Assembly (NCBI GenBank): GCA_963696525.1
Contig: CAVOKO010000012.1
Coordinates: 1,024,275-1,056,274, forward strand
Direction of reading: 5' to 3'
Length of the DNA: 32,000 nt
Source: an uncultured Acidobacteriota bacterium
GTDB taxonomy: Bacteria > Acidobacteriota > Terriglobia > Terriglobales > Acidobacteriaceae
Both the position numbers and the translations under genes were made by a program. Shown piece after piece: positions 14,130 through 15,453 of this stretch (the first letter of the stretch is position 1; each line of letters starts with the position of its first letter). The notes under the pieces are model-generated. The model saw only the letters and a program-made list of their open reading frames with translations, was not told the origin of the DNA and searched no databases.

Positions 14130-14405
14130 TTATCCGCAATCGCAGCTTACGCATTCACCGTTCTTGCCGCGCATGCTATTAATAATAGCCGCCGCGCAGC
14201 CTACTCCGGCAGAGACTTCGATTGCTTTCGTCGCGCAGTTCATACGGCAGGCTCCGCACTCCATGCAATCTTCGCGGTTGGCGATCACAGCTTTCCGTTC
14301 GACGACCGCAAACACCGCGTGCGGGCAGACTTCCTCGCAACGGCCGCAGCCGTTACAGAGCACCGCATCCAGGACGAGCGAGTGACCATTCAGAAGATAG
14401 CGCAT
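14130..14405 (-). CDS. hgcB: mercury-methylation ferredoxin HgcB (2x[4Fe-4S])
   Basis: CNGCGRCEEVCP and CMECGACRMNCA cluster motifs (the latter contains the HgcB-diagnostic C[M/I]ECGA). It also has the extra conserved Cys in GVGCAAAII and a Cys-rich C-terminus, CVSCDCG. The start lies 10 nt after the hgcA stop, with a GAGGGAA SD. Confidence 0.85.
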   Translation of the reverse strand: MRYLLNGHSLVLDAVLCNGCGRCEEVCPHAVFAVVERKAVIANREDCMECGACRMNCATKAIEVSAGVGCAAAIINSMRGKNGECVSCDCG

Positions 14406-14415
14406 AGTGTTCCCT

Positions 14416-15453
14416 CTAAACGAACGCCGCGGTAATTCGAAGAACCGCTCCCGCTGCCGCAGAGACTAAGATCGGCGGCAACGCTCGCCGGACTTCCAAC
14501 TTTGCCCCAGCCTGGGTGGTGAAGGTCGTGGACCCGGTGAACATCATCGCCATGTACGAAGTGATTGCCACTACAAGAAGGACGACTCCGGCTGCTTCGG
14601 TAAATCCCATCGGAAGCAAAACCAGCAGGCTCGCTGCTAACAGTACGCCTGCAACCGTTCCCTTTAGCGCGAAGTACCTGAATGGGAGCCATGGAAGCAA
14701 TACTGGAACGAGAAGCCCACCCGTAAGAATGGCGGCTACAAAGGGCAGGAGGTCCGTGGCGAGATGCGGCGTCAACTGGTGGTGACGTATCACGTCGAGA
14801 ATAGCCAGCAGCACGAGCGCCACAAGCGCGAGTTTGAGCTGACCAACAATTTCCACGGGCGCGAGAACGATGCGCTCTCTCCAAGTGAAGGTTACGCGCC
14901 GCATGGTCGGCGTGGTCTTCATGCCCGCAGCCAGATAGGCTTTGATGTCGTACGCCCGAACAGGTCCGTAGTGGACTGAGAAGCCGGTAGCGCGCTTCAC
15001 CTCGTGAGCAGCCACTCCCGTAGCGCCGAGCTGCGGGAGCACGAGATCGCGATGCCCCACAACCTTTTTCAGATTGATGGCCTGGATGCGGTGGACGAGT
15101 TCGTCGGTGCCGAAAGTTCCCTTGCCAGCGGCGCACCACACGTTAACGCCTTTGGTATCGAGAATCAGCAACCAGACGTTCGCGCCGACCAACTCTTTTC
15201 GGACCCGGTCAACAGTCAGCTTGTAGTTGGCAGTGACCAGCACGGATGAGTTTGCGTCCGGCTGTCCGATGCGGTATAGCCCCGGTGCGACCCGATATCG
15301 CATGCGCCCGATGCCCCAACGCACTTTCCAGCCGCCGAGCACGTCGCGCCAGGTGATCTGTGTGCTCAGTGAGCCGATGAACGGGTCCGCTGGCGCTTTC
15401 GCCGGGGAGATCTGGCACGGTGTCGGACCACAGCCGCAACCTGTTTGGGTCAT
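14416..15453 (-). CDS. hgcA: mercury-methylation corrinoid protein HgcA
   Basis: The cap-helix motif NVWCAAGK (aa 104-111, nt 15121-15144) sits within an N-terminal CFeSP-like corrinoid domain. About 5 C-terminal transmembrane helices follow. An AAGGAG SD lies 8 nt upstream of the ATG. Confidence 0.9.
   Translation of the reverse strand: MTQTGCGCGPTPCQISPAKAPADPFIGSLSTQITWRDVLGGWKVRWGIGRMRYRVAPGLYRIGQPDANSSVLVTANYKLTVDRVRKELVGANVWLLILDTKGVNVWCAAGKGTFGTDELVHRIQAINLKKVVGHRDLVLPQLGATGVAAHEVKRATGFSVHYGPVRAYDIKAYLAAGMKTTPTMRRVTFTWRERIVLAPVEIVGQLKLALVALVLLAILDVIRHHQLTPHLATDLLPFVAAILTGGLLVPVLLPWLPFRYFALKGTVAGVLLAASLLVLLPMGFTEAAGVVLLVVAITSYMAMMFTGSTTFTTQAGAKLEVRRALPPILVSAAAGAVLRITAAFV

Follow-up and report, generated by a model that had tools for sequence, protein, structure and literature searches.

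A stretch of DNA from an uncultured Acidobacteriota bacterium (assembly GCA_963696525.1, contig CAVOKO010000012.1, positions 1,024,275 to 1,056,274 of the forward strand), 32,000 nucleotides (nt) long and here called the window, carries a gene pair, hgcA-hgcB, that likely forms a bicistronic operon for an orthologous mercury methyltransferase complex in a probable acidobacterial host, with probable repression by an ArsR-type regulator and induction by As(III). The initial annotation had recognized a motif-complete pair, with an hgcA of 345 amino acids (aa), the cap-helix motif NVWCAAGK containing Cys107, a 10-nt gap and an hgcB of 91 aa, and all of these coordinates were verified (Table 1). 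Missing from it were the divergent arsR-acr3-arsC operon and the control region that this operon shares with hgcAB. The locus is an ordinary, standard HgcAB in a clade already catalogued from metagenome-assembled genomes (MAGs). The divergent arrangement of hgcAB and arsR-acr3-arsC around a conserved region with two candidate operators is new here and represents a modest addition.

Identity of HgcA and HgcB

The products were compared with 80 species-level HgcA loci from species-representative genomes (numbered L...). HgcA matches the NCBIfam equivalog NF040863 (HgcA_corrinoid) with 422.7 bits (cutoff 275, E = 9e-127), and the rival profiles stay below their cutoffs, namely the fused HgcAB-like model with 213.8 bits (285) and the CFeSP gamma model with 69 bits (306). 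A CdhD-type corrinoid domain (residues 54-172) is the only Pfam match. The motif NVWCAAGK is identical in nearly all of the 80 loci, and its cysteine, Cys107 in the window, is known from the literature on HgcA as the predicted axial thiolate ligand of cobalt. Judged by these matches, the protein is a separately encoded, methylator-type HgcA and neither a CFeSP nor a fused HgcAB-like paralog, as the initial annotation had proposed. Translation starts at an ATG 6 nt past AAGGAG and ends at a TAG, which is followed after exactly 10 nt (AGGGAACACT) by the hgcB start. The two open reading frames (ORFs) are unfused, and mercury has been methylated by every tested organism with an unfused hgcAB (PMC10087281).

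An AlphaFold2 model of HgcA (predicted local distance difference test score 78.9), calculated from 60 clade homologs, shows a corrinoid domain in which beta strands and alpha helices alternate, followed by five long helices (residues 191-224, 230-255, 261-279, 284-303 and 314-344 according to DSSP). Hydropathy analysis agrees, with four broad peaks, one of them long enough for two helices; the earlier estimate of about five transmembrane helices is therefore supported by both. The top Foldseek match is the integrative HgcAB model of Pseudodesulfovibrio mercurii ND132 (9a0b_A, 43% identity, E = 9e-19). The ND132 system (Parks et al. 2013; Zheng et al. 2024) has the same hgcA-hgcB order, the same NVWCAAGK motif with the ligand cysteine and the same CFeSP-like corrinoid domain followed by five transmembrane helices. 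Its HgcB likewise contains two [4Fe-4S] motifs, a conserved cysteine past the second motif and C-terminal cysteines. The next Foldseek matches are CFeSP large subunits (AcsC/CdhE; 4djd, 2ycl), which share the fold of the corrinoid domain (root-mean-square deviation ~2.3 A over ~126 residues, 25-31% identity) but lack the transmembrane domain and the cap-helix cysteine and possess an N-terminal [4Fe-4S] domain that is absent from the window HgcA. With HgcA as query, sequence searches of the PDB returned only CFeSP, and with HgcB generic ferredoxin domains; no experimental HgcAB structure was found there.

Both genes are under purifying selection (dN/dS ~0.1). The ratio of nonsynonymous to synonymous substitution rates was 0.11 for hgcA and for hgcB in a comparison with the 92%-identical homolog, at unsaturated dS values of 0.24-0.41.

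HgcB contains the eight cluster cysteines, the additional Cys70, placed about 12 residues past the second cluster motif like Cys73 of ND132, and the tail cysteines Cys85, Cys88 and Cys90. The residue after the second cluster motif is Ala and not Pro, as in most of the clade. When the family profiles were applied, as had been recommended, HgcA passed and HgcB reached 98.2 bits on NF040864 (HgcB_ferredoxin), 0.8 bits under the cutoff of 99. Ten HgcB proteins of the same clade score between 93.2 and 102 bits, and profile positions 87-93, which cover the CC end, remain unmatched. The shortfall appears to arise because the tail is short and leaves the last profile positions unmatched, not because the protein belongs to a different family; the alignments thus point to an annotation threshold at the family edge and to no failure of the motifs.

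Several side observations concern HgcB annotation and the downstream region. The NCBIfam cutoff leaves out the window HgcB and four of the ten related clade proteins scored, and in JGI/IMG records (P0125-P0136) the HgcB cluster is labelled 'NAD-dependent dihydropyrimidine dehydrogenase PreA subunit' and the HgcA cluster 'hypothetical protein'. The HgcB of L006 (4351-4626) carries Asp in place of the second cysteine of the first cluster motif (CLGDGRCLEVC) and may hold an Asp-ligated or a [3Fe-4S] cluster. No convincing intrinsic terminator was detected downstream of hgcB. The RraA-like and major facilitator superfamily (MFS) genes that follow were considered as parts of the system and rejected, as they are not conserved in related loci.

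The cysteine arm of HgcA and the tail of HgcB

The window HgcA has four cysteines in total, Cys107 and three (Cys6, Cys8 and Cys13) in an N-terminal arm, MTQTGCGCGPTPC; residues 1-21 are disordered in the model. The initial annotation had described both this arm and the HgcB tail as unusual. The cysteine-rich start is present, but unusual it is not: at least two cysteines precede the conserved HgcA core in 60 of the 80 loci, often as CC or CxC. All 60 clade sequences have Cys6, and conservation reaches at least 90% at Gly7 and Cys8. A preprint by Haft et al. describes an N-terminal HgcA extension with CU (U, selenocysteine) in most proteins and CC in others, and considers the annotated starts of ND132 and Geobacter HgcA too short owing to an in-frame UGA. 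The 92%-identical homolog of the window HgcA opens with MTQTGCCGP, resembling the PCUGP of Haft et al., and the arm corresponds to this published CC/CU extension. The window and ND132 differ in this respect, with CGCG at the N-terminus of the former and the proposed CU motif upstream of the annotated start in the latter.

Selenocysteine read-through upstream of the window hgcA was considered as well and rejected. The in-frame TGA falls inside the stretch with promoter and operators, a strong Shine-Dalgarno sequence precedes the ATG, and for these reasons the protein is taken as the cysteine and not the selenocysteine form. In L030, L038 and L070 (Desulfitobacterium, Desulfosporosinus), an in-frame TGA immediately before a cysteine codon is found just upstream of a short annotated HgcA N-terminus (..GVUCML.., ..PMUCQ..), which fits the selenocysteine forms that Haft et al. 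proposed.

The usual HgcB tail follows the pattern EPxCxCS...(n)...CC, in which CxC is the most widely conserved part. The difference between the window tail, CVSCDCG, and the vicinal CC of ND132 is real, but it is a clade-wide variant and not a peculiarity of this locus, since HgcB ends one or two residues past CxC and without a terminal CC in all 18 of 18 acidobacterial-clade loci. The third tail cysteine (CxxCxC) was confirmed in the window, L001 and L085. A comparison of tails across clades, in line with one of the checks suggested earlier, covered 150 representatives clustered at 50% identity and contained 36 tails with CC and CxC, 34 with CC only, 7 with CxC only and 9 of other types. 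The CxC-only tail is a minority type that recurs in other lineages. Acidobacterial MAGs assigned to Bryobacterales or Solibacteraceae, with 59-75% HgcA identity, combine the same SCGCG-type N-terminus with an HgcB tail stopping after CxC. Covariation of the HgcB tail type with the motif at the HgcA N-terminus (CxC or CC) was examined and rejected; CxC N-termini occur together with CC tails in L013, L014, L043, L067 and L068. The cysteines at both ends are real and conserved, but known variation. Functional data are available for ND132 HgcB, in which Cys73, the counterpart of Cys70, is essential and one C-terminal cysteine is enough (PMC7305189); either Cys94 or Cys95 alone sustains activity, and the length and cysteine number of HgcB tails vary (Cooper et al.).

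By orthology to ND132, the corrinoid would be held in the cytoplasmic Rossmann-like domain of HgcA, with the five helices as membrane anchor. The two [4Fe-4S] clusters of HgcB would reduce the cobalt to Co(I), which S-adenosylmethionine (SAM) would methylate to CH3-Co(III), stabilized by the Cys107 thiolate as lower axial ligand. SAM has been identified as the methyl donor, and the cobalt in HgcA is thiolate-ligated (PMC11588087). From CH3-Co(III) the methyl group would pass to thiolate-held Hg(II). Likely ligands for Hg(II) capture and CH3Hg+ hand-off are Cys6, Cys8 and Cys13 of HgcA and Cys70, Cys85, Cys88 and Cys90 of HgcB, and the CxC-type tail could substitute for the terminal CC of the model enzyme by the same logic.

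The control region shared with arsR

The 112-bp region between arsR and hgcA contains two candidate operators. Comparative genomics suggests that the hgcAB promoter stands back-to-back with that of arsR-acr3-arsC. The proposed O1 would cover the -35 hexamer, and O2 would follow the -10 hexamer and precede the ribosome-binding site. With two ArsR-type operators predicted at its promoter, hgcAB is probably subject to repression by ArsR that As(III) relieves. Each operator motif occurs once in the window (0 matches expected by chance for O1, 0.03 for O2). Both are kept in the six loci of the window's subclade, which comprises the window and five loci with 74-92% HgcA identity (L001, L085 and L088-L090). 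A symmetrical change of O2 (TATTCG..CGAATA) is seen in L001, L089 and L090.

A scan of metagenome contigs for the O1-type motif CATATWCGYNTTGACAWATAT yielded 121 sites (loci L091-L210). At 102 of these an ArsR homolog is encoded no farther than 120 bp away, with 58-72% identity to the window ArsR in the listed loci, and hgcA is nearby at 3. The first gene on the hgcA side could be scored at 70 sites. It is arsM at 47 of them, arsC-like at 7, arsI at 6, acr3 at 3, and a MIP channel gene, an arsO-like gene and hgcA at 2 each. NCBIfam models confirmed the cargo families (ArsM 362 and 289 bits, cutoff 263; ArsI 166 bits, cutoff 116). Many of the metagenome loci have another palindrome of the ATATTCG type ahead of the ribosome-binding site, also upstream of arsM cargo. 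The motif therefore appears to mark a widespread soil ArsR promoter/operator whose usual divergent cargo is arsM, and these counts identify the predicted control region of the window as an arsenic-regulon element with hgcAB in the slot usually taken by arsM. The divergent arsR-arsM modules of soil share with the window a homologous ArsR, O1 over the -35 hexamer and the palindrome before the ribosome-binding site, and differ in their cargo (arsM, arsI or arsC instead of hgcAB). No arsM was found in the window or at the hgc loci, apart from an ArsM-like methyltransferase gene in a Synergistaceae MAG (L047, 2820-3374), ~250 nt past hgcB and with 40% identity to a metagenome ArsM.

On the other side of the region, ArsR matches NF033788 with 89.4 bits (cutoff 55) as well as Pfam HTH_5, and its CVC pair occupies the position of Cys32/Cys34, the As(III) site of Escherichia coli R773 ArsR. 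The start of acr3 overlaps the arsR stop (ATGA). The product of the following gene scored 131 bits on the thioredoxin-type ArsC equivalog TIGR02691, under the cutoff of 174, and an identical gene in L082 has the Pfam domain LMWPc; on this basis the predicted protein is assigned no further than ArsC-like of the low-molecular-weight phosphatase family. In L085 and L090 arsR still adjoins hgcAB, though acr3 and arsC are absent there.

Elsewhere in the acidobacterial clade, as in several other phyla, a MarR-like regulator gene lies directly upstream of hgcA. In most of the acidobacterial MAG loci (L002-L011, for example L003 3511-4014) it encodes ~165 aa with a CCGVTLAQCH motif and lies on the same strand as hgcA. 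The arrangement also occurs in L013, L016, L020, L021, L027, L039, L056 and L068, among them Spirochaetota and deltaproteobacterial loci, and the gene corresponds to the 'putative regulator' of McDaniel et al. From these gene orders, the window's subclade appears to have swapped the MarR-like regulator for the divergent ArsR. Two further genes were observed between arsR and hgcA in relatives. An ORF of 60-66 aa rich in cysteine (...WNTAxxCGFCCGIR...PSSCCGVRV*), which has no NCBIfam match, is located between the ArsR operators and hgcA in L001 (3777-3959), L089 (3802-3984) and L087 (4001-4160); it is absent from the window and L085, where hgcA directly follows O2 and the ribosome-binding site. 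L090 (1031-1867) contains a 278-aa gene of the phosphoenolpyruvate (PEP)-mutase/isocitrate-lyase family, with methylisocitrate lyase and PEP mutase as top NCBIfam matches, all below cutoff, and L088 (3754-3981) a 75-aa C-terminal remnant of such a gene, which was not found in the window.

[quoted passage not shown] The ND132 arrangement differs from that of the window, with a co-transcribed four-Cys ArsR2 and no adjacent ars genes in the former and a divergent CVC-type ArsR heading acr3-arsC in the latter.

Such a setting raises the question whether hgcAB is primarily a member of the arsenic regulon, with the methylation or handling of arsenic or other metalloids as its selected function, mercury methylation as a side reaction and hgcAB in the place of arsM. 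This is consistent with the cargo of O1/O2-type regions, where hgcA at two or three sites stands beside arsM at 47 of 70 and arsI, arsC, acr3, MIP or arsO at most others, and with a classical CVC As(III) motif in an ArsR whose gene leads the translationally coupled acr3-arsC operon. Many loci of Firmicutes and other groups have ars genes next to hgcAB. In ND132, according to the literature, hgcAB responds to arsenic and its deletion raises the sensitivity to As(V), and HgcAB uses SAM as ArsM does. However, the MarR-type regulator of the sister acidobacterial loci implies that the ArsR link is not ancestral to the clade, and co-regulation does not fix the substrate and is compatible with a mercury methyltransferase under ArsR control. 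A primary arsenic function is thus considered rather unlikely. Equally tentative is the proposal that hgcAB of this subclade has come under the capture of an ArsR control region that senses As(III) and in other loci drives arsM, and might act as a stand-in for, or partner of, metalloid methylation.

Table 1. Coordinates of the hgcAB genes, the divergent ars operon and their predicted features in the window
Feature	Position	Strand	Basis or remark
hgcB, 2x[4Fe-4S] ferredoxin partner, 91 aa	14130-14405	-	NF040864, Pfam Fer4 families
HgcB C-terminal tail CVSCDCG (Cys85, Cys88, Cys90), CxC type without terminal CC	14133-14153	-	
HgcB Cys70 in GVGCAAA, counterpart of ND132 Cys73	14196-14198	-	Conserved in all loci
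HgcB cluster motif CMECGACRMNC	14235-14267	-	Verified
HgcB cluster motif CNGCGRCEEVC	14325-14357	-	Verified
hgcA, Hg-methylation corrinoid protein, 345 aa	14416-15453	-	NF040863, Pfam CdhD, AlphaFold2, Foldseek
HgcA transmembrane domain, residues 191-344, five helices	14422-14883	-	DSSP on AlphaFold2 model, hydropathy
Cap-helix motif NVWCAAGK, residues 104-111, Cys107	15121-15144	-	Coordinates verified
HgcA N-terminal Cys arm MTQTGCGCGPTPC (Cys6, Cys8, Cys13), codons	15415-15453	-	Clade conservation; disordered in model
hgcA Shine-Dalgarno sequence AAGGAG	15460-15465	-	Kept in related loci
Proposed operator O2, palindrome CATTCG-N6-CGAATG	15467-15484	-	Between hgcA -10 hexamer and Shine-Dalgarno sequence
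Predicted sigma-70-like promoter facing hgcA, TTGACA-17-TATTCT	15495-15523	-	Consensus scan, 10/12 positions
Proposed operator O1, imperfect inverted repeat ACATATACGTGTTGACATATATGT	15511-15534	.	Over -35 TTGACA 15518-15523 (hgcA side) and arsR-side promoter
arsR, ArsR/SmtB repressor, 136 aa, EVCVCYF (Cys34, Cys36)	15566-15976	+	HTH_5, NF033788; divergent from hgcA
acr3, arsenite efflux transporter	15973-17073	+	TIGR00832 467.3 bits (cutoff 282.8)
arsC-like, low-molecular-weight phosphatase-type arsenate reductase	17070-17480	+	Start overlaps acr3 stop

Host, remaining alternatives and significance

Among ~8000 HgcA homologs in a large protein collection, the closest (94% and 92% identity) come from JGI metagenomes, and those named by NCBI at 64-70% identity from Bryobacterales, Bryobacteraceae and Acidobacteria MAGs. 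The nearest eleven of the species-representative loci have 59-75% HgcA identity, are almost all from Acidobacteriota MAGs, including Bryobacterales and Solibacteraceae, and form one clade with the window HgcA in a neighbour-joining tree; all others reach at most 53%. A fumarase gene in the window has its top named match in Ca. Korobacteraceae (76%). The host is thus probably acidobacterial (Terriglobia or Bryobacterales-like), in line with the acidobacterial surroundings noted initially. MAGs with acidobacterial hgcA were first described in 2019-2020 (McDaniel et al. 2020), and validated methylators as of 2022 belonged only to Desulfobacterota, Firmicutes and Euryarchaeota (PMC10087281), in agreement with the earlier remark on a lineage whose hgcA comes almost only from metagenomes.

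Alternatively, the hgcAB-ars island could have been acquired horizontally by, or mis-binned into, a host of another phylum. Interphylum transfer of hgcAB is documented, members of the clade have been binned as Myxococcales (L002) and Gemmataceae (L009), and the fumarase homologs at 71-73% identity include Firmicutes. Against this, an identical HgcA is already public on a 1.1-Mb contig, which implies a chromosomal location, Acidobacteriota make up most of the clade genomes, and the best named fumarase match is the one in Ca. Korobacteraceae. A host outside the Acidobacteriota is accordingly improbable.

Several points weigh against an ArsR-controlled mercury methyltransferase operon in an acidobacterium and should be borne in mind. 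The terminal CC present in most HgcB is absent, and the HgcB profile score stays just under its cutoff. The cap-helix region has low confidence in the AlphaFold2 model, which contains no cofactor. Promoter and operators are predicted from consensus and conservation only, and the cysteine sites of the window ArsR are unlike those of the experimentally tested ND132 ArsR2. The host is assigned by sequence similarity, and hgcAB genes tend to be transferred horizontally. Moreover, a permafrost study detected no acidobacterial hgcA transcripts (McDaniel et al.).

Two other functional explanations carry little weight. A 2026 preprint reports dechlorination of CCl4 by heterologously expressed HgcAB and by model methylators, from which a halomethane could be the native substrate (reductive dehalogenation) and mercury methylation co-metabolic; this is very unlikely for the window, as the claim comes from one preprint on enzymes of Desulfobacterota, the window shows no sign of halomethane metabolism and an arsenic-type regulation favours a metal or metalloid cue. 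Least probable is a catalytically impaired or non-methylating pair, suggested by the sub-cutoff HgcB without terminal CC, by the 95% loss of activity in the ND132 double mutant C94A/C95A (PMC7305189) and by the missing transcripts of one study, but opposed by the three remaining tail cysteines (a single one suffices in ND132), by retention of the widely conserved CxC, which recurs as the sole tail motif in other lineages, by purifying selection on both genes, tail included, and by sister proteins that straddle the cutoff (93-102 bits) only through the unmatched positions 87-93.

The proposed operon is flanked by genes for chemotaxis (CheY-like, GAF protein, CheD, CheA, methyl-accepting chemotaxis protein, CheR and CheB) and for a fumarase of the oxygen-labile class I Fe-S type with alpha and beta subunits, located at 18330-26086 and 28999-30599. 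These genes fit a motile host of anaerobic or microaerobic habit. A fluoride riboswitch is located at 26173-26235 (+; Rfam RF01734, 42.2 bits, gathering score 34). It is followed by genes for a STAND/AAA_16-type NTPase (26332-27096) and a dynamin-like GTPase region (27120-28900), and no crcB or CLC-F exporter was found downstream of it.

As the accepted marker of methylmercury production is hgcAB, and as the soils and peat in which methylmercury forms are rich in Acidobacteriota, a well-resolved acidobacterial locus provides a useful template for functional tests. Screens for the gene pair can under-count this clade, whose HgcB scores 93-102 bits, on either side of the NCBI cutoff of 99, and is named "PreA subunit" at JGI. 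The N-terminal cysteine arm and the CxC tail offer conserved handles for mutagenesis on the route of Hg(II) to the cofactor. An arsR control region that is usually coupled to arsM suggests a concrete, testable link from arsenic exposure to hgcAB expression and bears on the native role of HgcAB. If the capture of hgcAB by this region is true, arsenic would switch on methylmercury production in these soil and peat bacteria.

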